Shown: positions 1,223 through 56,323, counted from the stretch's first letter. The stretch is DNA of 64,000 nt from an uncultured Thermoplasmata archaeon (GCA_963730815.1 CAVSTD010000008.1:400693-464692); one strand, 5' to 3'. Notes: generated from the sequence alone by a model not told the origin. Translations and numbers: made by a program.

Positions 1223-1366
1223 AGTGTGGACGTAAGCGGCCTCGACGGGGCCCAGTCCGCGTAGCCGAGGGGTGGGTGTAAGCCCCGTTGATGACATGTT
1301 GACCTCCGCCCGATGTCGGGCAAGAAGCAAGTGCGGCGCCTCTCTTCAGCCCCCTCGAGGCGCCGC

Positions 1367-2401
1367 ATGGAGAGCGAACTGTTCGTCGGACTGGATGTGC
1401 ACAAGAAGTCGGTCGTGGCCACTGTTCTGGACCGAGAGGGGAATCGGGTAGACCAGTCGAGTTTCGGGTCCCGGGACTCCGAGCTGATCACCTATCTGAA
1501 CAGCCTCTCTGGCCGCAAGCATGTGGTCCTCGAGGCCTGCAACGTGTGGGAGCACTTCTACGATGCCGCCACGTCGACGGACGCCGAGGTGACTCTCGCC
1601 CACCCCTACCGGGTGCGCTTGATCAGTGAGGCGAGCTTGAAATCGGATAAGGTAGATTCGGCCAGCCTGGCGGAGCTCCTCCGCCTCCACGGAATCCCCA
1701 TGGCGTATGCTCCCGACCCCGAGATCCGAGCTCTGCGTCAGCTGGTGAGGGACCGTGCGTTCTACAAGCGCGAGGAGTCGAGCATCAAGAGCCACATCTA
1801 CTCGGCGCTGCTGCGCAAGGGGATCCAGTACGAGGATGGGCTCCTCGGCCAGAAGAGGAAGCGCGAGGAGTTGCGCTCCTACGCTCTTCCCGAGGTCGAT
1901 CGAGGCCTGGACGTCCTCCATCGATTCGAGGAGCTCACGAAGACCCTCGACGAGGCGATCCACGCGGTGTTCCTCAAGTCGAAGGAGGCCCAACTCCTCG
2001 AGACGATCCCGGGCATTGGGGAGTTCACAGCGGTGGCCCTAGTGGCCGAGCTGTGCCCGATCGACCGTTTCCCGAATGTGGAGAAGCTCTGCTCGTACGC
2101 CGGACTCGTCCCGACCAACCACCAGTCGGGAGAGTCCTCCTACCAGGGTCATCTGAAGCCCGACTCGAACCACCTCGTGAAGTGGCTCTTGGTCGAGGCA
2201 TCATGGTCCCACCGCCAGTGGGCCGACAAGAGCAGTGACGTCACGAAGGTGGCCCGTCGCGTAAGTCGACGGGGTGGGAAGCAGAAAGGGAATGTTGCGG
2301 GGGCCCACAAGCTTCTGAAGATCGTCTATGCGGTCCTCAAACGGGGGACCCCTTACACTCCTGACCGACCGAGCTCCGGTGTGGGTGCTGCGGAGTCGTG
2401 A
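1367..2401 (+). CDS. IS110-family DEDD transposase/recombinase
   Basis: ORF 1313..2401. FVGLDVHKKS, VVLEACNVWEH and KSDKVDSASLAELL form the RuvC-like DEDD N-domain; IPGIGEFTAVALVAEL...YAGLVPTNHQSGES is the Transposase_20-type C-domain with conserved Ser. ATG 1367 is preferred over 1313. Confidence 0.9.
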   Translation: MESELFVGLDVHKKSVVATVLDREGNRVDQSSFGSRDSELITYLNSLSGRKHVVLEACNVWEHFYDAATSTDAEVTLAHPYRVRLISEASLKSDKVDSASLAELLRLHGIPMAYAPDPEIRALRQLVRDRAFYKREESSIKSHIYSALLRKGIQYEDGLLGQKRKREELRSYALPEVDRGLDVLHRFEELTKTLDEAIHAVFLKSKEAQLLETIPGIGEFTAVALVAELCPIDRFPNVEKLCSYAGLVPTNHQSGESSYQGHLKPDSNHLVKWLLVEASWSHRQWADKSSDVTKVARRVSRRGGKQKGNVAGAHKLLKIVYAVLKRGTPYTPDRPSSGVGAAES

Positions 2402-3803: not shown

Positions 3804-4934
3804 TCAGCGTTCTGCGGGCTCGCGGGAGTGCATGGTGACCTGACGGTCGGTTTTCGCGACGTTCTCGGGTTCGACGCTGCGGTTGATCGTGACCTCGTTG
3901 ATGATCACCAGCATTTCCAGCGCCATCAGTAGGTTCGAGACGACACGCTGGGCGGCCACCGCGAGTCGCCGGTCGGAGATATGGCGAGCGAGTGAGTCTC
4001 CCAGCTTGTAATCGGTCGGAAGGAGCCGGTCGATCTCGTTCAGGTTCGCGTTCGCGTCCACCACCGAAAGGCGGCCGAAGGCGTCCATCGTTCGTTCGAG
4101 GAGACTCTCGACTCGCTCGATCAGAGTGACCAGGCCGGTGACGGCCGGCTTCGGCAAGCGGTGGAGCCCGGGTAGGTTGTCGCCGATCTCGCGGCCCACG
4201 CCCGAGATCAGGTCTCCGGTGACCTCGAGGACCTTCGCGAGCAATCGGTATCCGATCTGGTAGTGGTGGCTCTCCACGCCGATGTCCCGCGCCACCTGGA
4301 AATCGTCCGACGAAAGCAGGAGCTGGCGGACCATCAGGAGATAGAATCGGTCGATCTCATCCTCCATGGGTCCGAGCTGTTGGAGGGCGGCGCGGTTCCC
4401 CCCGGTCAGGACCGATCGGCAGGTCTCGAGTTCGGAGCGCAGCATTCGAACTACTTGGCTCTGGAGGCGATGGAACTGGTAGCGACCCGGGTCGACGAAA
4501 TTCTGCACCTCGACCGCTCCCGACTCCTCCTCGACGACCGTCATCCCGAGGACGTGGGCGACGGTGCGCCGGACCTCCTGGCGTTGCTCGGAAGTGAGGC
4601 CCGAGCGAGACGTGACGATGATCTGGTCCTGACCGGTGATGTACGCCCCGATCAGGAGTCGGGCGAGAAGCTTGGGAGGAGCGCCGCTCGCGTCGATCCG
4701 CAGGAGCTTCTGACGACGGTCGGACGGGGTCTCGGCGTTCGCCGGGCTGATCTCGAGGCGCCCCCCGCCGAGGTCCCGGAATCGAAGGGTATCCCCCGTG
4801 TCGAGGTTCATCGAATCGGTCCAAGCCTTCGGGAGCGTGATCGAAAGGGACGAGGAGCCGGTCCGCTGGACTCGCCGTGTGAATCCGGGGGCAGCCGGAG
4901 TCTCCGGCGATTCCTTCCGAGCCCGCGGCATCAC
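3804..4934 (-). CDS. AbrB/SpoVT-domain + PhoU-domain regulator (archaeal 'phosphate uptake regulator' type)
   Basis: ORF 3804..4934. N-terminal swapped-hairpin-like RRVQRTGSSSLSITLPKAWTDSMNLDTGDTLRF, then PhoU-type helical repeats (EDEIDRFYLLMVRQL; NLNEIDRLLP..AVAAQRVVSNLLMALE). Confidence 0.8.
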   Translation of the reverse strand: MMPRARKESPETPAAPGFTRRVQRTGSSSLSITLPKAWTDSMNLDTGDTLRFRDLGGGRLEISPANAETPSDRRQKLLRIDASGAPPKLLARLLIGAYITGQDQIIVTSRSGLTSEQRQEVRRTVAHVLGMTVVEEESGAVEVQNFVDPGRYQFHRLQSQVVRMLRSELETCRSVLTGGNRAALQQLGPMEDEIDRFYLLMVRQLLLSSDDFQVARDIGVESHHYQIGYRLLAKVLEVTGDLISGVGREIGDNLPGLHRLPKPAVTGLVTLIERVESLLERTMDAFGRLSVVDANANLNEIDRLLPTDYKLGDSLARHISDRRLAVAAQRVVSNLLMALEMLVIINEVTINRSVEPENVAKTDRQVTMHSREPAER

Positions 4935-5221
4935 GACCGCATAATCTCGGGGTCATTAACGGTCTGCCCGACCACCTTCGTGCGCCCGGGACCCCCCCCG
5001 CCGGTCTCCTTACTCTCCTTACGGCCGTGACCGTACCCGCATCACCTTCGAGACCCTTCTCCCCTTCAGAGGCGTCACATGCGACCAGGACAAGGATTCC
5101 GAGTGTTCGACAGAGCCGACTGGCGACGAAAGGCACGGGTGCCCGATTTGGCCCAGCGTGCAGAGATCGAGAAGCGACCCTCGCAGGTCGCGGACCGAAA
5201 GACGCAGGGGAAGTGGTAACC

Positions 5222-22850: not shown

Positions 22851-23735
22851 ATGGACCGAGCGACCTACCAGCGCCTCTACGATTCCCTCGTCACCTACGA
22901 GGACGTGCACCGCATTGCCCACACCGAGCACCGGGACGAGGAGTTGCTCTTCGTCATCCACACCCATCGGGTCACCCGGGACGCGACCCGTCGATTCTAC
23001 GTCGTCAAGCGCCAGCTGCCGAAGCTCGTGTCCCAGTGGAAGCGCGGCCGCTCCGTCCTCGACATCGCGCGGGAATGGAAGTTCCCGCCGGTGCTGATGG
23101 GCCAACAGATGCTCGGGGAGCTCGGCATCCCGCGCAAGAAGGTCTGGGGGGCGTTCCTGCATCCCGAGACCGCCCCGGACGCGCGGCTCCGCAAAGAGAT
23201 CGAAGAGCTCCTCGCCGCGGACATGATCTACTCTCCGCACGGGATGGAGCTGCAGCGGGAGCGGGGTCGCAAGGGGGAAGACCGCCTCCAACGGTGGCTC
23301 GAGAAGCACGGGATCGGCTTCCGGACGGAGAAGGACCTTCGGGGGAAGTACGCGAAGACCCCGGACGCGCTCCTTGACGAGCCGATCATCTTCTACGGCC
23401 AGAAGCTCACGTGGATCGAATCGAAGGCAAACTTCGGGGACGACGTCGAGCTGCGGAAGAACCTACGACGCCAGCTCGGCCCGTACACCGAGATCTTCGG
23501 CGAAGGAGCGGTCGTTTACTGGTACGGATATGTGGAGGGCGCGGAGTCGCCCCCGGGGATTCTCCTCTGGGACGGGGAAACGTTCGAAGGGATCACTCCG
23601 ATCGTACCGCCGCGCTCCGAGCGACCTCACGCTGCTCACCCGTCGCGAGATCACGTTCGACCAGCGCACCCGGTGCCGCCTCCCGCAGGCCCAGGATCAG
23701 CGCACGGCGGCTCCGGCGGCGCGCCGCCTCCTTGA
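22851..23735 (+). CDS. TPD-domain protein (C15orf41/CDIN1-like PD-(D/E)xK nuclease family)
   Basis: RGKYAKTPDALLDEPIIFYGQKLTWIESKANFGD (TPD motif plus E-x-K). The Pro-rich last ~45 aa overlap hisS convergently and may not be genuine. Confidence 0.7.
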   Translation: MDRATYQRLYDSLVTYEDVHRIAHTEHRDEELLFVIHTHRVTRDATRRFYVVKRQLPKLVSQWKRGRSVLDIAREWKFPPVLMGQQMLGELGIPRKKVWGAFLHPETAPDARLRKEIEELLAADMIYSPHGMELQRERGRKGEDRLQRWLEKHGIGFRTEKDLRGKYAKTPDALLDEPIIFYGQKLTWIESKANFGDDVELRKNLRRQLGPYTEIFGEGAVVYWYGYVEGAESPPGILLWDGETFEGITPIVPPRSERPHAAHPSRDHVRPAHPVPPPAGPGSAHGGSGGAPPP

Positions 23736-24900
23736 GCTGACGCGAAAGGTTCCGAGACAGCAGGTCGCAGTCGGCGCTCCGTCCGGCGCGCCGCAGCTCC
23801 TGCACGATCGCGATCGCCTCGGCCTGCAGGGCCGGGTCGGGGACCGCCACCGCCACGAAGGTATCGAGCGGAGGCTCGCCTTCGGGCCAGCGACCGGCGT
23901 TCTTGAGCAGGATCTCGAGCGTCTGGTCCCCGATGGCGATCCCCGCGGCCGGCGTCGGAGGGCCCTCGAACAATTCGATGAGGTGGTCGTACCGTCCGCC
24001 TCCGAACAACGCCCGGGAGTCCCCCGTCTTCGCGTACCCCTCGAAGACGATCGAGGTGTAGTAGGCCAGGCCGCGCACCACGGTGGGGTCGAAAACGGTG
24101 CGGTCGGAAAGTCCGGCCCGCTCGAGCAGCGAAAACAGTTTGCGGAGCCGTTCGACCCCCTCCAGGGCCGGGGTGTCGAGACCCTCGCGCGAGAGCTCGG
24201 AGAGGAACCGGTCGAGGTTCGCTGCGGGAATCCCGGTGCCGGCGCTCTCGAAGAAGGAGCGGAGCTCCTCCACCCGATCTGGCGAGACGCCGGCGGCCCC
24301 AAGTTCTCCTTCGAACTCCGCGGGAGGGATCTTGCGGTACTGGTCGACCGCCCGGAAGAAAGGGCCGGTCTCTTTCGCTCCGGCCCGGCGCCCGAGGCCT
24401 TCCGCGATGGCTCGGTCGCTCACCCGGAACGCATAGAGGCCCTGGGCCCCGACGTCGTCGAGGAGGAGGGCGGTCGTCGCGAGGATGTCGGTCTCGGCCT
24501 CGACCCCCGGGACTCCGAGGATATCGAGATTGAATTGCAGGAACTCCCGCGTCCTTCCGGCCTGGGGTTCCTCGTACCGCCAGGATTTCGACACCGTGAA
24601 CCATTTGGCGGGGAGCGGCTCTGACTTCGCCCGCGCGGCGAAGACGCGGGCGAGCGACGGAGTCGTTTCCGGTACGAGCGCCACCAACCGCTCTCCCTTG
24701 TCGTGGAACATCCAGGTCTGGGCCGCGATGCCTTCCCCGCTCTTCGTCTGGTAAAGCTCGAAGCTCTCGACGCACGGCGTCTCGAGTTCGACGTAGCCTC
24801 CTCGACGGGCCGCCGCCCTCATCCGACGGCGGATCTCCGAGCGGGCCCCCGCCTCGGGCGGCGGATAGTCTCGGAATCCTCGCAAGGCGTCGAACGGCAC
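23593..24900 (-). CDS. hisS: histidine--tRNA ligase
   Basis: RGFRDYPP, WRYEEPQAGRTREFLQFN, FGGGRYDHLIELF; class II HisRS motifs plus a C-terminal anticodon-binding domain. Confidence 0.95.
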   Translation of the reverse strand: MPFDALRGFRDYPPPEAGARSEIRRRMRAAARRGGYVELETPCVESFELYQTKSGEGIAAQTWMFHDKGERLVALVPETTPSLARVFAARAKSEPLPAKWFTVSKSWRYEEPQAGRTREFLQFNLDILGVPGVEAETDILATTALLLDDVGAQGLYAFRVSDRAIAEGLGRRAGAKETGPFFRAVDQYRKIPPAEFEGELGAAGVSPDRVEELRSFFESAGTGIPAANLDRFLSELSREGLDTPALEGVERLRKLFSLLERAGLSDRTVFDPTVVRGLAYYTSIVFEGYAKTGDSRALFGGGRYDHLIELFEGPPTPAAGIAIGDQTLEILLKNAGRWPEGEPPLDTFVAVAVPDPALQAEAIAIVQELRRAGRSADCDLLSRNLSRQLKEAARRRSRRALILGLREAAPGALVERDLATGEQREVARSAAVRSE

Positions 24901-24929
24901 GGCCGGAAGACCGCCGCCCGGTTAATTAG

Positions 24930-36433: not shown

Positions 36434-36479
36434 CACCCCCTAGGTCTCGCGCGCCGCCGGCTCGGAGAGCCGGTCGCGC

Positions 36480-39400
36480 ATGGAATCGACATCTTCCGGA
36501 TGGTGGCACCGTCACGGCTGGACGGTGGCGATTCTTCTCTCCGCGTTCGGGATCTCCTTCGCGCTCCGGACCATCTGGGCCTATCCGGTCGTTTCCCAGT
36601 GGGGACCGCTCTTCACCTACGCCGGCGGCTCGGACTCCTACTACCACTCCCGGGTGATGCAGTACATCATCCTCAACCATACGAATTTGATCCACGACCC
36701 GCTCCTCCAGTTCCCGGTCGGAGCGATCAACCCCCGAGAGCCGCTGTTCGACTGGATGAACGCGATCCTCGGGATCATCTTCGCCCCGTTCTTCGGCGGG
36801 AACGCCGTCGTGGCGGGCGCCTGGTTCCTGGACCTGCAGGCCCCGCTCTGGGCCGCGCTCGGCGTCTTCCCGGTCTACCTGATCGGCCGAGAGGTCTCGG
36901 GCCGACGGACGGGGCTCATCGCGGCGGTCATCTTCCCGTTCCTGAGCGGGAACATCGACTCCTCGATCTTCGGGTATGCGAACTATCTTTCGTTTTACAC
37001 TTTCATCATCCTCGTTGTCGTCTATTCGTACATCCGTACCGTCAAGGCGGTCGGAAGTCGACGTTGGGTCGAAGATTACCGCCACCCCCGACAGTACATC
37101 CCCGCGGTCCGCGCGTTCGTCCGTACGGAACGCAGCGCGGTGAAATGGGCCGTCTTCACGGGCGTCTCTCTCGGAACGCTCGCGCTGGCCTGGCAAGGGT
37201 ACACCTACGGCGTGGTCGTGATCGCGATCTCCCTCGTCGTCGCGATGGTGGTGGAGCGGATCCGCCGGGTGGACTCGTTCGGACTCTACGTCGCGACCTG
37301 GATCGTCGGGCTGGTCGGATTCCCGATGGCGATGCCCTACTACCTCGTCCAGCAGCAGTTCGCCGTATGGTTCGACCTTCCGCTGTTGATCTTCTTCGGC
37401 GCACTCGCCCTGCTGCTCCCGTTCCTCTTGATGCGGGACATCCCCTGGGTGTTCTCGGTCCCGTTCCTCGTGGCGGTTTTCGCCGCGGGCGTGGGCGCGC
37501 TCGCCATCGTGAGTCCCACCTACTTCACGTCCCTCGTCACCGGGCAGGGATACTTTGTCAAGAACCTGATCTATTCGACCGTCGCCGAGGCCCAGGCTCC
37601 CTCGATCGACCAGTTGGTCCTCGGCTACGGCGTCGTGACGTTCTTCCTCGCGTTCGCCGGGCTCGCCATCTTCGTCTACCTCCTCGTCCAGGGTCGCTTC
37701 AAACGACACCACGTCGTGTTCCTCGTCTTCTCCCTCCTCTCGCTCTACCTTCCGATATCCGCCGCGAAGTTCTTCCTCGTCGGCTCGCCGATCTTCGCAC
37801 TGCTACCGGCCGAGGCGATACGTCGGGCGCTCGACGTCGCCGGGTACGGGGAGCTGCGAAGAACCACGGCGTCCCTCTCCGACCGGAGAAGCCAGTTCTC
37901 CGCCTTCCGCAAGGCGTTCAAGCCGCGCCACGTCCTCGTGATGGCGCTCGTCCTCATCGTCGTGCTCCCCAACGTGTGGGTCGCGATCGACGCGGGCATT
38001 CCGGGCAACACCAAATCCGAGTACGCGGCCCAGGTTGGGGCCACTTTGCCGCCCTGGCTCCAGCTCAATACGTCCAACCCGTCGAACTATTACTTCGGGG
38101 CCGCGGGGACCTCCCTCGACACTCCGAACCAGTACGATAGCGCCGGGTACAATTGGCTCGCCCAGCAGGACACGAACGTTCCGGCCCCGCAGCGTCCGGC
38201 CTTTGTCAGTTGGTGGGATTACGGATTCCAGGCGATCGCCCAGGGAGCCCACCCGAGCGTCGCCGACAACTTCCAGAACGGGATCGACCCCGCGGGACAG
38301 TTCCTCCTCTCCCAGAATGAATCGCAGGCGATCGGCGTGCTCGCCACCACGCTCCTCGCCGCCGAGCAGCGCGCATCGGGGTTGCCCGACCTCCCGCCCG
38401 CCCTCAACCAGATCCTCGCTGCCGACGGGCTCAACACGAATCAGCTCCATAACCTGCTCGTCAACACGGGCTCGGACTACAACCTCGTGGTCGCCCACCC
38501 CGAGCGGTATCTCCCCGTCGACGCGAGCACGATCACCCCGGTGAATGCGATGTATCTCGCGATGGCCTACTTCCTCGCGACCTCTCTGCCCCTCAACGGG
38601 GTCGCGAAGGTCTACAACGACATCCAGTCGTACACGGGCTGGTCGATCCGCTATACGATGACCGACACGCGGCTCTTCCCGTTCAGCGGCACCGACACCG
38701 GCATTTTCTACGCTCCGGCGGAGCTCACCGGACGGGTCATCGATTCGACCGGCGCGCCCTCTACGTTCTTCAATCTGAGCGTGCTCGGGTCCGACGGCAA
38801 CTACTACTCGCCCAACCATCTGCCCGCGGGGGTCACCCAGGTCGGCTCGCCGGTCGTCAACTACTTCGCCCCGTTCTATAACTCGATGATCTACCGAACG
38901 TACATCGGGTACAACGGGACGGACATCGGTTCGAGTCCCGGCATCCCGGGCCTCTCCTCCTCCCTCGCGAACGCGACGATCGAGCCGGGCTGGATGCTCC
39001 AGCATTTCCAGGTCGTCTACAAGACCGCGTACCTCTGCTCGCTGCCCAATGACGGCGGAAACTGCATCGCGGACAACGAACCGGCCGCGGTCGCCGGCGC
39101 CGCCCGCATCAACGGCTCCGCCGACACGACCGCCTTCACCTACTTCAGCGGGGGCGAGTCGATGCTCGAGTACTATCCCGGCGAGACCCTCCTCGGGGAC
39201 GTCCAGCTCCCGGACGGCTCGCCCGTCGGCGGCGCGCGGGTGACGGTCTACGATGGCTGGGGGATCCCGCATCAGACCGTCCTGACCGCCCCGGACGGCA
39301 CCTTCTCGCTCGTCCTGCCTCCCGGCAACGACACCGTGAACGTCACCATGGGGACGTTCGACGGGCTGACGCAGGCCGGCGGCACCCTCCTGAGCTCCGC

Positions 39401-42400
39401 GAAGATCGTCGTCCCGAACGCGGTCGGCCTCAGCTACAACGCCCCAAATCTGGTCCAGACGTTCACAGTAGGCGGCGGCTCCATCCAGGGCTTCGTCTTC
39501 TGGCAGTTCGGGACCAACTCCTCGGTACTCGCCTCCCGCGGATACGCTCGTCTCGGGCGCCCAGGTGGTTTTCAGCGGAACGAACCTGACCCAGCACACG
39601 GCGACGACGGATGCCAGCGGTTCGTTCAACCTGACCAACGTGGCGCCGGGGGTCTACAGCTACCATGTCCTCTACGGCGGGCAGAATTACACCGAGAGCA
39701 GCATCACCGTCAATCCCGGCAAGAGCTCGAACGCGACCGCCGGGCTCGCGGCGGCGACCGTCCTCGGAACGGTGAGCACCTCGAGCGGACACCCACTCCC
39801 CGGAGCGACCGTGTTCCTCGGGGGACCGAGCGGAACGCTCGCATCGACCACTTCGGGTGCCACGGGCGACTACCGGCTCGGCAGTGTCGGAGCGGGCAAC
39901 TATACGCTCCTCGCCGCGGTGGCCGGGTCGGACCTTCGCTCGGCCGGTGTGCCCATCACGCTCACCGCGGGGAATCTCAACGTGAGCGAGAACCTCACCG
40001 TCCGCCCGACGGGAAGCGCCACCTTCGTACTGACCGCGGGCGATGCCGCCGCCGCGAACATCCCTGTCCGGTTCACGCCGATCGCGACCTACTCCAACAG
40101 CTCGGTCTCCCCTCTTGCCTCGCTCGGGAATGCCTCCCGAAATTCCACCGTCCTTCTGAGTTCGGGCTCCGGGGCCGCCGCCGCCGCCCTCCCGCCCGGG
40201 AACTACTCGGTGTACGCTTCCGGGGTCATCAACGGCGTTCAGTACGTCGGTCTCGGCGAGGCCCTCGTCACCGCCGGGTCCGCGTCGACCTCCCTACTCG
40301 CCCTCGCTCCGGCGCTCCGGCTCTCGGGCAACGTGGCGGCCGTGGGCCCGCAGACGAACCAGACCCAAACGGCGGTGATCGCGTACGCGCCGAATGGGGA
40401 CGAGGTCGTGACGTGGGCCACCGGAGGGGCCTATTCATTCTCGCTGCCCGCCGGCAATTACGGCGTGCTGGCTCTGGAGGGGCCGAAGAACGAGGCGAAC
40501 TCGGTTTGGACCGCGCTCGCCGGGGTCACTCTCTCGACCGCGACGACTCTGCCGATCGACCCGGTGGCGGCCGCGAGGGTCGCTTTCACGGTCGGGGCGC
40601 CGCTGGCGGGCGGGACCCTCTTCCCCGCGGGCGGGGCGACGGTGTTCGTCAGCGAGGGCACCAGTGGGCCCTCGATACCGGTGACCTCGAGCGGCAACGG
40701 CTCGGTCGCGCTGTACGTGCCGACCACGCTGCCCCTCACGGCGAGTTCGTACTGCGTGCGCGCGAGCGCCCTCGGGTTCGCCTCGACGACCATGTGCGGC
40801 CTCTCTCCGAGCGCGCTCGCCGCGCTGACCCAGCTCGTGACATCCCTCGACCCGGTCCCCGTGACGATCACCGTCCTCGGGCTCCCGTCAGGGAGCTCCG
40901 TTCAGGTCAACCTTACCGCGGTGAGCTCAACGGCTGTCAACCAGACGCTTTCGGGCGGACCGGATTTCTCGTTGAATGTGGCACCCGGTCTTTACACGAT
41001 CGCGGCCCGGGCCGTGGTCGGAGGGACGGTCATCTACCTTCCTCCGGGTCCATTCTCCACGGCGATCCCGCTCGGGACCACCAGCTACGACGTGACGCTT
41101 CTCATGATTCCACAGGTGAACTCTACGGGGACGCTGACGGTTCCAAGCGGCGTGCCGCTCGGGAACGTCAATGTCTCGCTCTCCTCGCCGGGGCTCAATG
41201 TGACCGTGAACGGCAGCACGTTCGAGAGCGGTTTCTTCGCCGCTCCCGGGACGTATTCGGCCTACGCGACCGCCACGGCGGGCGGCACCACCTACGCGAG
41301 CCTCTCCCGGGTGACCATCGCTTCGAGCGGAGCGGTCTCTCCGGCGATCGTGCTTTCCGGCGCCGGGCCTCGGCTGACGGGGACGCTGGTGAACGCTTCC
41401 GGCGCGACCGTCCCCCTCAACGCGACCGCGTTCGTGGTTGCCCCCGGCGGGGCGGTCGCTGTCGCGAATTCGGTCGACGGCATCTTCTCTCTGCCGCTCA
41501 ACTCCGGGACGACCTATGCGGTCTTCGTCAACGGCACGACCGTGACGCCGGGACCGAACGGCAGCTTCGTTCAGTCCTGGAGCGCCGCCGCGGGGGCCAG
41601 CTGTTCGCTCGGGGCCGTGAACACGTCGTGTGATGTACCCTTGGTAGGGGTCCCCCGGTTCGTGTACCTCAATGGGACCCTGGTCGCGTCGGGCGTCCCG
41701 GGGACCGTGCCCGGCACGTTGCGGTTGGTGGGTCCGTACCCGTCGACCAACGTGACCGTAGTGACCACGGCCACCGGGTCGTTCTCGGCTTCCCTGCTCC
41801 CGGGCGCGTATTCCCTCTATGCGACGGGCGGAGGGTCGGTCGAACCGCTCGCGAACCTTACGAGCATTCTGGCTCTTCGATCGAGTTCCAGCCCGCTTTC
41901 CGTCTCGCTCTCGCCGACCTGGGTCGACACGATCTCCGTCGTTCCCCCGGGCGGCCCCGGTGGGGGCATCGGCCCGGTCACGGTAACTATCACCGACGCG
42001 CTCGGGACCCGGACGCTGTATTCCGGTCAGTCCCCGAGCTCCCCGCTCCTGCTCGCCCTCCCCGCGGGGACCTACCTTATCCGGGCGACGGCGGCCGGTT
42101 CCTACGGCGGAGTTCCTTCGAACGCCTCCGCGCAGTCGACGGTCACGATCCTCAACGGCAACGTGGGCACGGTCCTTCCGCTGACGTACGTCACGACCAC
42201 GGCCGTCGCGGGGAACCTAATTGGTCCTACGTCGACGACCGTCCAAGCCGGAGGGACCGCGACGTTCTCGTTCTCGCTGCGCAATTCCGGCAACGTCCCG
42301 GTGACCGTCCACCCGGTCGGTACGCCGGCCTACTGGACGTTCGACTTCAACTTCGGTAACGTCACGCTCCTTCCGGGCCCGAGCGGCACGGTGGTCGCCG

Positions 42401-43074
42401 GCGAAGTCCGAGTGCTGATTCCGGCCGGGACCGATGTCGCCCACCCCGGGGTGACGGTCGAGTTTGAGAACGCCACCGGCACGATCTTCGGGTCGGTGAG
42501 TCCGGCGCCCACCATCAACGTTGTCGGGTACTACGGGCTCCTCGCCGGGTATTCGCCCCTTCCGGGCCAGGTGACCGCATCGGTCGCGATTCTTCCGTTC
42601 TACATCGTGAACACGGGCAACGTCGGCGAGACCGTCGTCGCCACCGTCACGGACTCGGCGCAGCTCTCGGGGCTCGGCTGGGCAAGCGGATTCCAGTTGG
42701 GGGCGGGCGGGGCCGCGACCCCGTCGCTTCAGACGTACCTCTCGACCGGTGGCAACACCACCGTCTACCTGAATCTGACCGCGACCTCCTCCATCTTCAT
42801 CACGCCGCGGTCGGCGACCGTCTCGCTCTCCGTCCTCAATGCATCGGGGAGCGTCTCCGAGACCCTGACGTTGAACGTGCCGGTCGTCTCGGTCAGCGCG
42901 GGCACCGGTCCTGGCTCCCCGCCCGTTACGGTCACCGGCCCCTCGGTCGGTCCGCAACCGAATGCCCCGCTGGTTTGGCTCGTGCCACTCCTCTCGTTTG
43001 TTCCGGCGATCGCCCTCGTCGTCGGCGTGGTCACGTATCGATGGTGGCGCACCCGGAGGTGGACGCGGCGATGA
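36480..43074 (+). CDS. aglB: giant oligosaccharyltransferase AglB/STT3 fused to an Ig-like/carboxypeptidase-regulatory repeat array and C-terminal TM anchor (one frame break at ~39535-39541)
   Basis: ORF 36480..41633 carries multi-TM STT3 with SWWDYGFQ (WWDYG). From ~39541 the coherent reading continues in ORF 39565..43074 (..NSSVLAS|ADTLVSGAQVVFSGTNLTQHTATTDASGSFNL..). The frame-1 tail after that point is Arg/Gly-rich noise. Confidence 0.85.
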
Positions 43075-43904
43075 ACCGCCGACGTAACGCTATTGCCGTC
43101 CTCGGTCTCGTGCTGCTGCTCGCGGCCCCGACGTTCCTCATCGCGGTCTCGGCCGTCGCGCCGAGCGCGCGGGCGGCGACGACCGAGGCCGTGACCGGTT
43201 CGGTCAGCGGACCCGGCATCGTCGCCACCGGCTCCACCACCCTCTTCTACGTGTACGGGTGGGGCGGCCCGGCCGTGGCGTTCAACGCCACCGTGGTCGG
43301 GACGATCAAGTATTACTCTGCGCTCTCGGGCTCCAACCTCACCGGGGTCTCGTTCACGCCGGCGACGGGGAATATCACCTCGAACCAGTCGGTCCTGGTG
43401 GACCTCGCCGTCGGGAACGCCACGGAGACGATCACGATCAGCGTGATGATCTCCTCCCTCAACTCGAACGCGAGCGAGAATCAGTCGACGAACGTCTCCA
43501 CGACGGTCCACATCGTCCAACCGTATGTGATCTCGGCGACGATCGTGAACTCCTCGGCCACGACGGTCAGCGCGTTCGTCGTGTACGTGACCCTGGACGG
43601 CTCGATGGTCGGACGAGTGAACGTCACGAGCCTCGCCGCCGGTAAGTCGTTCCAACTGGTCTACCAGTACGCGACTTTAGGTCTCTCGAGCGGCGAGCAT
43701 ACGTTCGGGATCTCGCTCGCCCAGGAGCACGGGCTCGTCACGTTCCCGAACGGTCAGACGCAGTACACCGTGAACGTGTACGTCAACGGACCCGCTCCGG
43801 ACTACACGCTGTGGTATGTCGCCGGAATCGTGACGTTCTTCGGCGTCCTCTTTATATTCGCATCCCGGGTGGCCGCGCGCCGGCGAGGCGCGGCGCGTCG
43901 TTGA
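43071..43904 (+). CDS. secreted, C-terminally anchored sequon-rich protein
   Basis: ATG 43071 overlaps the aglB stop (ATGA). Signal peptide MNRRRNAIAVLGLVLLLAAPTFLIAVSAVAPSARA, ~10 N-x-S/T sequons, C-terminal TM WYVAGIVTFFGVLFIFA plus RRRGAARR. Confidence 0.7.
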   Translation: MNRRRNAIAVLGLVLLLAAPTFLIAVSAVAPSARAATTEAVTGSVSGPGIVATGSTTLFYVYGWGGPAVAFNATVVGTIKYYSALSGSNLTGVSFTPATGNITSNQSVLVDLAVGNATETITISVMISSLNSNASENQSTNVSTTVHIVQPYVISATIVNSSATTVSAFVVYVTLDGSMVGRVNVTSLAAGKSFQLVYQYATLGLSSGEHTFGISLAQEHGLVTFPNGQTQYTVNVYVNGPAPDYTLWYVAGIVTFFGVLFIFASRVAARRRGAARR

Positions 43905-53925: not shown

Positions 53926-53967
53926 CCCGCGCAGGGCGGGGAAACCTTTTCTTACGACCGCAGCGTC

Positions 53968-54075
53968 CAACGGTCGTGGCCGGGATGGGGTAGCTTGGCC
54001 TATCCTGGGGGACTGTGGATCCCTCGACCCGGGTTCAAAGCGGCGCGGGGACCTCCCCCGTGCTGTGAGACTCTC
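53968..54075 (+). tRNA. tRNA-His (anticodon GTG) with 32-nt intron in the T-loop (between positions 59 and 60)
   Basis: G-1 at 53968. Acceptor GCCGGGA/TCCCGGC with C73. D-arm has A14, G18G19 and A21. Anticodon arm GGGGA-CTGTGGA-TCCCT. T-stem CCGGG/CTCGG. T-loop TTCAAA[intron]T. A complete hBHBh' motif is present (details in findings). Confidence 0.85.
54030..54061 (+). other. tRNA intron (BHB-type, non-canonical position 59/60)
   Basis: GCGGCGCGGGGACCTCCCCCGTGCTGTGAGAC. A 10-bp internal helix is flanked by two 3-nt bulges separated by the 4-bp helix TTCA/TGAG. Confidence 0.8.
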
Positions 54076-54085
54076 GGTCCCGGCC

Positions 54086-54922
54086 CTACGCCCTCTTCGA
54101 CCGAGTCGCGGTCCTTCGAGTCGGGGATTTCCGAGTCTTGGATTCCAGCGCGCTGAGGGTAGCCGGAAGGTCCGATAGGGTGTAATCGGCCCAGGCCGCA
54201 CCCCACTTCTTGAGGTCGGCCGGGGTGAGCGTCCATCCGGGGAGCCGCGAAGCTCGGGCCACCGGCGTCACGCCGGCCACCGACCGGGCGGCTTCCATGT
54301 CGAACCGGGAGTCTCCGACCAGGAACATCGGCACGGCGGGGTAGCGGCGTCGGTACTCGGCGAGGTGTTCGCGTTTCGTACCCTCGCCGGACCCTAGGAC
54401 GCCCTCGAACCAATATCGCAGGCCCTCTCGTTCTAGCATCAGGTCGGCCATTTCGGTCTCGGCACCGGTCGCGACCGCGAGCGTCCAACCATCCCGGTCC
54501 AAGGTGTTCAGGAGCTTCGGCACCTCGGGGAACGGGTGAGCCTTCGCGTAGGCTTCGACCACCTTGCGTTGGTGGAACGTCCGCGCTGTGCTGGCCCGGA
54601 GCGCAGCGGGAGCGGTCGGGTAGAGCTGGGCGAGCTGAGCCTCGAACGGCATACCGGTCGTTGCGAGGTAGTGGACCCGAGCCTCCTCTTCGGGGGTTCC
54701 GAACGCTTGGGCCATTACGTCGGCGGCGACCGTGCAAATGAGCGAGATGTCGTCGAGGATCGTTCCGTCGAGGTCGAAGACAACGACCCCGCGCTTCACG
54801 GCGCGAGGCGGCACGATTTCGCGAGGACCCCCGACCGGCCGGGAAATCTCCGCGAATTGGCTCGTCGCGGGGAGCACCGGTAGTGAGGCTTCGGGGGCGG
54901 GAAGGTCTTCGGGACCAGGCAT
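54086..54922 (-). CDS. HAD-superfamily hydrolase
   Basis: VVVFDLDGTI (DxDGT), GDSRFDMEAA. ATG 54922 is preferred over 54994 because a reverse-strand TCTTAAAGAG box sits ~25 nt upstream. Basic K/R/T-rich C-terminal tail. Confidence 0.8.
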   Translation of the reverse strand: MPGPEDLPAPEASLPVLPATSQFAEISRPVGGPREIVPPRAVKRGVVVFDLDGTILDDISLICTVAADVMAQAFGTPEEEARVHYLATTGMPFEAQLAQLYPTAPAALRASTARTFHQRKVVEAYAKAHPFPEVPKLLNTLDRDGWTLAVATGAETEMADLMLEREGLRYWFEGVLGSGEGTKREHLAEYRRRYPAVPMFLVGDSRFDMEAARSVAGVTPVARASRLPGWTLTPADLKKWGAAWADYTLSDLPATLSALESKTRKSPTRRTATRSKRA

Positions 54923-55023
54923 CGCGCCAGCGAGCCGGGCGACCTCTTTAAGATGGTAGGCGCGGGGTCGCGCTAATAGCGAGGCGCGCCTCACCCTGCG
55001 AACGCGACGTTCGAGGGACTGTC

Positions 55024-56323
55024 ATGCATCCGAGTCACGCGATCCGAGGCCGTTCCAGTCAGCTGCTCGCGGGACGGCGTATTGTCCTCGGGGTTTCCGG
55101 TTCGATCGCCGCGATCGAACTCCCGAAGATAATCCGAGAGCTGATCCGCCACGGCGCCGACGTTCAGGCCGTCATGAGCCCCGAGGCCATGCGCATTGTC
55201 ACCCCCGAGACCCTCGAATTTGCGACCGGTCATCCACCAATCACCCAGCTCACGGGGAACGTCGAGCACGTCACCCTTCTCGGGCCGGGTACGGGGCGGG
55301 CGGACCTCTACTTGATCGCGCCCGCGACGGCCAACACAATCTCCAAGATCGCTCACGGGATCGACGACACGCCCGTCACGACCTGCGCTTCGGTGGCGCT
55401 CGGAGGAGGCGTGCCAATCCTGCTTGCACCGGCGATGCACAGCCACATGGGACTGAACCCTGCCGTGAAGGAGAACCTGGAGAAGCTTCGCGGCTGGGGA
55501 GTCGGAATCGTTCCCAGCGTTTCCGCCGAGGGAGAGGAGAAGATCGCCGGCCCCGAGGCGGTCGCCGCGGCGGTGTTGCATCATCTCGCCTCCGGTCCGT
55601 GGCTGGGGCGCCGAGTGATCGTGGTCGGAGGTGCGTCCCGAGAACCTATTGACGCGGTCCGGTCGGTGACGAACGAGAGTTCGGGAACGACCGCGCTCGC
55701 CCTCGCGAACCAAGCGTACTACCGGGGTGCCGAGGTCGAGCTCTGGGCGGGCGCCCTCGAGGTCGGAGTGCCCGACTGGATTCCGACGACCTCGTGGAAA
55801 GGGGTAGAGGACCTGCTGGCGCTCGTTCGCCGGCGACGCTCGGAGCTCCGAGAGGCGGCCGCAGTACCTCGTCCCGGCCGCCCTCTCCGATTTCACTCTT
55901 GAGCGGCGCCCGGGGAAGATTCCGTCCCGGGAACACGAGAACCTGACCCTTACCCTTCGTCGCGCCCCGAAGGTCCTACCCGAACTACGTCGAGTCGCCC
56001 CCTCCCCTACTCGGCTCGTCGCCTTCAAGCTGGAACCGGGTCTTACGCCCGCCCAGCTCGAAGAGGAGGGTCGTCGTCTCGCCCGAGAAACGGGGGCCGA
56101 TTGGGTCGTCGCGAACGATGTGACCTCGATGGGCGGCCCGGAGACGAACGCGCTGGTGCTTCCTCCCGCCGGGGGCCGCCACTGGATCCGTGGGCCGAAG
56201 ACCGAGTTCGCCGGGAAGCTGCTCGACGACATCGGCCGCGACCTCGTGAATCTCTCCGCAAGCCCGGCGGGCCCTCAGCCGAGGAAGCGGCGAGTCGGGC
56301 GGCATCGGTCTCTCGACCATTGA
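55024..56323 (+). CDS. coaBC: bifunctional phosphopantothenoylcysteine decarboxylase / phosphopantothenate-cysteine ligase (frame-broken)
   Basis: ORF 55024..55902 holds the flavoprotein domain (LGVSGSIAA, APAMHSHM) and the start of the CoaB domain. The CoaB remainder (LVPAALSDFTLERRPGKIPS...VVANDVTSMGGPETNALVL) lies in the frame of ORF 56120..56323. 1-nt shift at ~55865-55870. Confidence 0.85.

Follow-up and report, generated by a model that had tools for sequence, protein, structure and literature searches.

The interrupted tRNA-His gene

A precursor tRNA-His(GTG) gene lies on the plus strand of a 64,000-nucleotide (nt) stretch of DNA from an uncultured Thermoplasmata archaeon (GCA_963730815.1, CAVSTD010000008.1:400693-464692), which is referred to here as the window. 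The gene is interrupted within its T-loop by a 32-nt intron located between tRNA positions 59 and 60. The coordinates of its parts and of other features of the window are given in Table 1. The extra G-1 (53978) sits immediately 5' of the 7-bp acceptor stem, opposite C73 at 54085, which bears out the tRNA-His(GTG) identity assigned in an initial annotation made from the sequence alone. The strings and structural elements described in that annotation are all present, but its coordinates are uniformly 10 nt too low and require a shift of +10. Its interval, 53968-54075, begins 10 nt 5' of the gene and loses the final 10 nt of the gene.

The T-arm and the intron together form a complete hBHBh' bulge-helix-bulge (BHB) motif, as had been proposed for the 32-nt insert at 59/60. 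The motif contains two 3-nt bulges and a 4-bp central helix (H), in which TTCA pairs with TGAG through U·G, U-A, C-G and A-U pairs. H is bordered by helices on both sides, the 5-bp T-stem outside and a 10-bp hairpin inside (criterion, at least 2 bp each). Excision of 54040-54071 in silico yields a 76-nt tRNA-His(GTG) in the ARAGORN model and restores the canonical T-loop TTCAAAT, as the initial annotation had also claimed. A cut after the second nucleotide of each bulge is the sole choice that gives a 7-nt T-loop, and differences between the flanking nucleotides leave no ambiguity in the splice site. The 3'-terminal CCA is not encoded, and the gene runs on as CCTAC.

The minimum free energy fold of the precursor consists of the cloverleaf stems and the inner hairpin, with an energy of -61.2 kcal/mol (z = -2.8; 0 of 200 shuffles as good). 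The T-arm and intron segment folded on its own forms H and the inner helix again (z = -3.65; 1 of 200 shuffles). A self-splicing group I or group II intron was ruled out, given an insert of 32 nt versus a catalytic core of hundreds of nucleotides and no Rfam match. A split or permuted tRNA was also ruled out, as the two halves are contiguous and collinear.

Table 1. Features of the tRNA-His locus and of the rest of the window, numbered from the first nucleotide of the window.
Feature	Position	Strand	Size	Basis or remark
Pre-tRNA-His(GTG) coding region, G-1 to discriminator C73	53978-54085	+	108 nt	sequence, fold
5' exon, G-1 to A59	53978-54039	+	62 nt	ARAGORN cloverleaf of spliced product
Acceptor stem, GCCGGGA with TCCCGGC	53979-53985 with 54078-54084	+	7 bp	sequence
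Anticodon GTG	54015-54017	+		ARAGORN on spliced sequence
T-stem, CCGGG with CTCGG	54029-54033 with 54073-54077	+	5 bp	outer helix of motif
Central helix H, 5' strand TTCA (T54 T55 C56 A57)	54034-54037	+		sequence, fold
5' bulge AAG	54038-54040	+		predicted 5' cleavage after A59 (54039/54040)
Intron GCGGCGCGGGGACCTCCCCCGTGCTGTGAGAC	54040-54071	+	32 nt	between tRNA positions 59 and 60
Inner helix h, 5' strand CGGCGCGGGG	54041-54050	+	10 bp	including two G·U pairs
Intron hairpin loop ACCTC	54051-54055	+	5 nt	sequence varies among relatives
Inner helix h, 3' strand CCCCGTGCTG	54056-54065	+		pairs with 54041-54050
Central helix H, 3' strand TGAG	54066-54069	+		sequence, fold
3' bulge ACT	54070-54072	+		predicted 3' cleavage before T60 (54071/54072)
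3' exon, T60 to C73	54072-54085	+	14 nt	ARAGORN on spliced product
Promoter-like element AAACCTTTTCTTA	53942-53954	+		BRE-like and TATA-like, counted from G-1
HAD-family hydrolase	54086-54994	-	302 aa	Pfam HAD_2
Open reading frame beside the HAD gene	54991-56232	-	413 aa	no Pfam match
hisS	23593-24921	-		TIGR00442, above cut-off
IS110-family (RNA-guided) transposase	1295-2401	+		
MazE-domain open reading frame	3804-4952	-		
STT3/AglB-like open reading frame	36444-41633	+	1729 aa	weak N-terminal match, CarboxypepD_reg domain
Open reading frame	42468-43904	+	478 aa	no Pfam match

Conservation and covariation of the intron structure

The decisive support for the predicted structure is the comparative evidence across relatives. 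GTDB was scanned at one genome per species using the anticodon-to-T-loop part of the 5' exon as the query, and at least 120 loci were obtained. At least 62 loci carry the exons of the window together with an insert at the identical T-loop site, and all of the intron-bearing loci are labelled Thermoplasmata archaeon, save one that is mislabelled 'bacterium'. An alignment was built from 61 distinct precursors, including that of the window. The introns are all different (61/61) and range from 28 to 33 nt, with 43 of the 61 being 32 nt long. On average, two introns, which the search pattern left unconstrained, are 64% identical, versus 97% for the exons. The near-invariance of the exons was given no weight, as it is in part a product of the search pattern and of the extraction regular expression.

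In the alignment, 90.4% of the cells of the named structure (H and the inner helix) pair. The proportion falls to 79.8% after shuffling of columns and to 34-56% after the partners are displaced by 1-3 columns. Compensatory changes on both sides are observed in seven of the ten inner-helix pairs. Double-change cells number 84, versus 26.8 ± 3.4 in the shuffles (0 of 500 reach this value) and 8-27 in the slid controls, and the covariation score is 0.286 versus 0.113. The inner helix was also predicted independently by RNAalifold on the 61-precursor alignment. The H pairs at positions 54, 55 and 56, beside the 3' bulge, are kept in 61/61 precursors, and the fourth pair, A57-U, is kept in 41 and replaced by A·G in the other 20. 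By a column-based count, the strict 3-4-3 motif is present in 29 of the 61, the window among them, while each of the other 32 has a single imperfection next to the 5' bulge, which is A57·G in some and a C·C first inner pair in others but never both. Within the hairpin, a GGGG/CCCC core is near-invariant, whereas most other stem positions and the loop are free to change. The feature that is conserved in the 61 species is the BHB geometry, by which archaeal splicing endonuclease (EndA) recognises its substrates and in whose two bulges it makes symmetrical cuts.

Intronless alleles were sought in 241 million metagenome records with the intronless junction joined to the acceptor stem of the window. 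The 17 intronless-junction matches all come from organisms with 36-57% guanine plus cytosine (GC) and bear other exon variants, some of them with a canonical 37/38 intron, and no intronless allele of the high-GC clade is among them. Likewise, no second, intronless tRNA-His was found in the intron-bearing metagenome-assembled genomes (MAGs) among the matches listed.

Promoter-like box and convergent neighbour

The promoter-like element upstream of the gene combines an A-rich block, AAA, at -36 to -34 from G-1, which resembles a B-recognition element (BRE), with a TATA-like sequence, CCTTTTCTT, at -33 to -25. In 60 aligned upstream regions, the positions of this box are 68-100% A/T, versus approximately 25% in the flanks. 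The consensus of the box is AAACCTTTTC(T/A)T, and relatives bear CCTTTTC(T/A)T at -33 to -25, at a constant distance. In position and composition, the box fits an archaeal BRE/TATA promoter placed for a short leader.

The HAD-family hydrolase gene converges on the tRNA-His gene. Its stop codon (CTA on the plus strand, 54086-54088) abuts the discriminator base at 54085, and there is therefore practically no space for a 3' trailer or terminator between the two genes. Most of the 60 relatives likewise have 'CTAC' directly 3' of the tRNA. The convergent HAD gene adjoins tRNA-His in 58 loci, over identities of 70-93% in the succinyl-CoA synthetase beta subunit (SucC). The 413-aa open reading frame (ORF) lies beside the HAD gene in 49 relatives and evolves fast, with 34-62% identity among them. 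Because the HAD synteny spans these ranges of identity in SucC and the 413-aa ORF, the intron has been kept over a long divergence.

Host organism

The window has a GC content of approximately 66%. It encodes topoisomerase VI A and B, SucC, a MIP channel, DnaK, an archaeal-type 2-oxoacid:ferredoxin oxidoreductase, an isopropylmalate/homocitrate synthase, histidyl-tRNA synthetase, an IS110 transposase, aEF-1beta, citrate synthase and an STT3-like protein. An archaeal host is evident from topoisomerase VI A/B, the archaeal oxidoreductase and aEF-1beta. A haloarchaeal origin, prompted by the GC content, was ruled out, as the proteins are non-acidic.

The closest relative among the matches listed is SMAG_U9053 (locus L071), whose DNA is 86% identical over 7.3 kb and whose pre-tRNA is 100% identical to that of the window, intron included. 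The two were ruled out as one genome, given a DNA identity of only 86%. Four loci (L066, L079, L101 and L111) bear isolate names from a study of Lutacidiplasmatales (TMEG, GTDB UBA184), and AcS5-58 (L079) and SubAcS10-22 (L066) are named there among the Lutacidiplasmatales (PMC9287336). These are soil archaea with a GC content of 68-69% and genomes of approximately 2 Mb (PMC9287336). The named Lutacidiplasmatales among the intron-bearing MAGs are from soil and peat, with a GC content of 66-69%. SucC of the window is 70-93% identical to that of the intron-bearing set and 73-76% identical to that of AcS5-58, AcS13-54 and SubAcS15-120, the AcS/SubAcS MAGs with SucC in the flank. The public runs that match the window are soil and peat metagenomes. 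Because of the nearest genomes, the SucC identities and the named Lutacidiplasmatales relatives, the host is placed in Thermoplasmata, either inside Lutacidiplasmatales or next to it.

Predicted maturation pathway and alternative readings

The locus is very probably a functional tRNA-His(GTG) gene with an ordinary archaeal protein-spliced intron at a non-canonical but documented position. In the proposed pathway, the gene's own BRE/TATA-type promoter would drive a precursor that contains the 32-nt intron between T-loop positions 59 and 60. T54-A57 would pair with the intron TGAG and form a 4-bp helix between the T-stem and the 10-bp hairpin. EndA would then release the intron by cutting both bulges 3' of their second nucleotide, which places the cuts behind A59 and in front of T60, and an RtcB-type ligase would join the exons. 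Processing by RNase P, which would leave the encoded G-1, together with 3' trimming and CCA addition, would give a 76-nt tRNA with a G-1:C73 pair. RtcB ligation, 5' processing by RNase P and CCA addition are established steps of archaeal tRNA maturation. We infer the cleavage sites, the enzymes and the occurrence of splicing from the sequence, and the cleavage positions in particular from the canonical BHB rule and the regained 7-nt T-loop. T54, T55 and C56 must be free for the T-loop fold and for the elbow contacts with G18 and G19. Because the central helix would sequester these three nucleotides, the precursor should not be able to work as a tRNA. The element is an ordinary, well-understood kind of archaeal intron and is very probably spliced.

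The locus was compared with 12 RNA-labelled runs, with a run of unknown kind and with two DNA runs. In at least eight of the metatranscriptome libraries, the 5' exon occurs in contigs that continue into an intron. The exact intron of the window is found in the X20 contig (53989-54140), and the introns of relatives are found in X22, X23, X29, X30, X31, X32 and X33. The X31 contig, 106 nt long with a depth of 12.7, covers nearly exactly the pre-tRNA. In runs X6 and X34, short contigs consist of the 5' exon only (53981-54038) and have a word depth of 260-725, versus 8-18 in the flanks. This depth pattern fits many co-occurring Thermoplasmata strains with a common exon and differing introns. With such a mixture of strains, the 5' splice site would be the exact point at which assembly graphs branch.

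Several results weigh against a spliced, functional gene. No contig with the spliced junction, in which the 32 nt are skipped, was found in the 12 RNA-labelled runs or the run of unknown kind, and no small-RNA library with the exon was found. A tblastn search with Methanocaldococcus jannaschii EndA (sequence verified against PDB 1a79) detected no EndA in the 64-kb window or in any of 120 flanking loci, and no genes for EndA and RtcB were found in the window or the fetched loci. The gene is probably the sole tRNA-His gene of the genome, a claim with a scope of 64 kb of that genome and the matches listed, and the invariance of the exons is discounted as described above. Retention of the 32 nt in RNA had been named in the initial annotation as grounds for rejecting the intron. 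Only unspliced forms were seen, in assembled contigs, and they were not counted as a refutation. Assembler contigs drop minority branches, and the 14-nt 3' exon would reduce the spliced branch to a unitig shorter than 50 nt. Moreover, mature tRNAs, being modified, are captured less well than precursors in ordinary metatranscriptomes, and DNA carry-over is possible. For these reasons, the absent junction is weak evidence.

The presence of only intron-containing forms among the RNA-library contigs would also suit an RNA from which the 32 nt are not removed and which works, or is tolerated, with an extra hairpin in its T-loop. Such retention is highly improbable. The contig data are biased against mature tRNA, helix H ties up T54, T55 and C56, which are needed for the T-loop/D-loop contacts, and the exact bulge positions and 4-bp spacing are conserved in 61 species, for which a hairpin alone is an inadequate account. 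If the locus were a pseudogene in decay, or a tRNA gene broken up by an inserted sequence, the failure of ARAGORN and Rfam to recognise it would fit, but the exons are intact and near-invariant, the intron structure is held by compensatory changes in 61 species, and the promoter box and synteny are both conserved. With intron-containing RNA in several libraries and no intronless copy in the same MAGs among the matches listed, this explanation is extremely improbable.

A function of the intron beyond splicing, such as protection of the 3' half as an integration site or a stable circular RNA, would be an addition to the spliced-intron reading rather than a strict rival of it. The intron is fixed clade-wide with no loss seen among the matches listed, the GGGG/CCCC core of the hairpin is near-invariant, and independent inserts occupy the same tRNA-His site in Hadarchaeota and in another Thermoplasmata group. 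Fixation can be neutral, however, once the enzyme is present, and the loop and most stem positions are free to vary. Box C/D-like motifs were not evident by eye in the 32-nt intron, and a guide function was dropped. Overall, an additional function is rather unlikely.

The splicing endonuclease

The T-loop site was initially taken as a hint of a crenarchaeal-type, broad-specificity endonuclease, a reading that lacks support, given a Thermoplasmata host and a strict 3-4-3 motif that all EndA forms can cleave. The α4 and α'2 enzymes need a strict 3-4-3 hBHBh' motif, and the (αβ)2 and ε2 enzymes also take relaxed motifs (PMC3239211, PMC5829648). The canonical BHB is cleaved by all EndA forms regardless of mature domain, and the homodimeric EndA of Ferroplasma (Thermoplasmatales; 288 aa) cuts a minimal BHB almost sequence-independently (PMC8707768). 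Because every EndA architecture cleaves a strict BHB, the motif of the window is uninformative on the endonuclease type.

A lineage with a crenarchaeal-type (αβ)2 or an ε2 broad-specificity endonuclease is unlikely. Non-canonical intron positions are enriched in (αβ)2 or ε2 lineages (PMC3239211, PMC5829648), and the imperfect pair by the 5' bulge in 32 of the 61 relatives hints at tolerance of relaxed motifs. The host, however, belongs to Thermoplasmata and not to TACK or DPANN, and its strict 3-4-3 motif is cut by α4 and α'2 enzymes (PMC3239211). The characterised EndAs of Thermoplasmatales are homodimeric α'2 enzymes (PMC5829648, PMC8707768), and NCBI-labelled Thermoplasmatota MAGs, which represent low-GC lineages, encode two-unit proteins of 313-314 aa. 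No EndA traceable to the clade was obtained in database protein searches, in which the matches came from other lineages: α4 enzymes of DPANN, α'2 enzymes of Archaeoglobi, Methanosarcinales and Methanonatronarchaeales, and enzymes of low-GC Thermoplasmatota. The sole high-GC candidate, P0106 (locus L121), was rejected, as it groups with Methanonatronarchaeales.

Since half of the relatives have mildly imperfect motifs, there is a modest chance that the enzyme of the clade is more tolerant than a textbook α'2 enzyme. Tentatively, an order-level Thermoplasmatota clade with an expected narrow-specificity, homodimeric α'2 enzyme may have fixed a 59/60 intron in a tRNA-His gene that is probably the only one it has, with about half of its species tolerating an imperfect closing pair next to the 5' bulge. 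If the EndA of the clade is α'2, the clade as a whole would be natural evidence that introns at non-canonical positions and mildly relaxed introns need no (αβ)2 or ε2 enzyme, and the rule of intron/endonuclease co-evolution would be weakened. If it is not α'2, the clade would have acquired a different or new EndA architecture.

Detection by tRNA finders

ARAGORN detects no tRNA in the whole 64-kb window. Rfam gives no match in the window at gathering thresholds, no tRNA at E ≤ 10 on the locus, where only two chance-level matches (E ~5) are obtained, and no match when the whole window is examined at E ≤ 0.5. Partial tRNA matches were not obtained either. The expectation in the initial annotation that standard finders miss the gene is thus true of ARAGORN and Rfam with the intron in place, and ARAGORN accepts the spliced form. 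As a control, both programs find the intronless homologues at L001 and L125 (Rfam, 54 and 52 bits). Among other interrupted genes, that of L071 is missed by both, that of L061 by ARAGORN, and those of L079 and L044 (its tRNA-His) by Rfam. At L044, Rfam and ARAGORN report a tRNA-Gln and not the interrupted tRNA-His. ARAGORN also mis-models 'tRNA-His' in L018 (1039-1114), L119 (4914-4989) and L079 (4013-4103). These wrong models are 76 or 91 nt long and end inside the intron or skip part of it, while the true precursors are 108 nt long.

The Lutacidiplasmatales study used tRNAscan-SE 2.0.5 in archaeal mode and reported tRNAs for all 20 amino acids in the type genome (PMC9287336), and tRNAscan-SE therefore probably finds the tRNA-His gene of the clade. 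Because ARAGORN and Rfam/Infernal fail on the gene or mis-model it, genomes of the clade annotated with them can seem to lack tRNA-His or receive a truncated model, and wrong models from automated annotation can look plausible.

Other tRNA-His inserts and further genes of the window

In two Hadarchaeota MAGs (L044 and L120), tRNA-His is likewise interrupted at 59/60, by unrelated BHB inserts of 16 and 22 nt, and an unrelated insert of approximately 31 nt is present at 59/60 in another Thermoplasmata group (L053 and L065). In each, TGAA pairs with TTCA and the bulges are 3 nt long, which suggests that the site has been used repeatedly or since ancient times. In three low-GC Thermoplasmata (L002, L010 and L030), an insertion of approximately 28 nt, GTAGC[...]TGGCAGCAT, occupies the D-loop of tRNA-His and represents a different non-canonical intron position. 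It is missing from the close intronless relatives L040 and L057, and ARAGORN reports no tRNA in L010. In metagenome contigs with a GC content of 36-50% (L129; L134, L135 and L137; L123, L130, L133 and L139), tRNA-His contains an intron at the canonical 37/38 position, and the T-arm and acceptor 3' strand are the same as those of the window. A Thermococci MAG (L089) carries tRNA-His from the anticodon onward, without a recognisable 5' half upstream, and this may be a fragment, a split gene or a gene with another intron. A Thermoprotei MAG (L013) contains two tRNA-His copies, inverted and abutting.

Elsewhere in the window, hisS lies approximately 30 kb from the cognate tRNA-His gene, and the MazE-domain ORF is found near the IS110-family transposase ORF. 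The 1729-aa ORF combines a weakly STT3/AglB-like N-terminal region with a CarboxypepD_reg domain and may encode an oligosaccharyltransferase fused to a large extracellular part.

Comparison with known systems

BHB introns at 59/60 are documented, and the kind of element found here is already known. In the literature searched, no report was found of tRNA-His with a T-loop intron that is fixed throughout a large clade of soil Thermoplasmata. The 61-species set forms a clean natural covariation series for the 59/60 BHB motif outside TACK and DPANN, for which such introns are usually discussed, and it makes testable whether the position or mild relaxation needs a broad-specificity endonuclease. 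The clade is abundant in soil and peat, and the main value of the finding lies in annotation and in a test set for the rule of intron/endonuclease co-evolution.

The closest parallel is found in ARMAN-2 (Ca. Micrarchaeum acidiphilum), whose pre-tRNA-Pro(GGG) and pre-tRNA-Cys(GCA) contain short protein-spliced introns at 59/60, the T-loop site that is also interrupted in the window (Fujishima et al. 2011, PMC3239211). The ARMAN-2 tRNA-Pro intron has a strict hBHBh' motif like that of the window and has been described, and the tRNA-Cys 59/60 intron, which is relaxed, was cleaved in vitro (PMC3239211). ARMAN-2 differs in belonging to DPANN, in its ε2 enzyme, in the tRNAs concerned and in having 56% of its tRNA genes disrupted (PMC3239211), whereas a single gene of a Thermoplasmata archaeon was examined here. 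Positions in the T-arm and D-arm are also listed as known intron sites (PMC8707768).

The non-canonical introns of Crenarchaeota/Thermoproteales (Sugahara et al. 2008 and Marck & Grosjean 2003, as cited in PMC4033280 and PMC3239211) likewise place a BHB outside the anticodon loop and are missed by finders restricted to 37/38. In those lineages, however, the EndA is of the (αβ)2 type, relaxed HBh'/hBH motifs are common and a tRNA can contain multiple introns. In contrast, the intron of the window is single and strict and is located in a euryarchaeal-type lineage. Canonical 37/38 introns of euryarchaea, including those in the tRNA-His genes of L129, L134 and L123, have the same 3-4-3 motif and presumably use the same EndA/RtcB pathway. 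The T-arm and acceptor exons of these 37/38 tRNA-His genes are near-identical to those of the window, and the intron is positioned in the anticodon loop instead of the T-loop. The BHB sites that flank archaeal 16S and 23S rRNA, which EndA also processes in rRNA precursors, show that the EndA of all archaea can recognise a BHB lying outside a tRNA body (PMC5829648, PMC8707768). These rRNA sites differ from the tRNA-His intron in that they are not tRNA introns and the fragments produced need not be joined again to give a functional exon.

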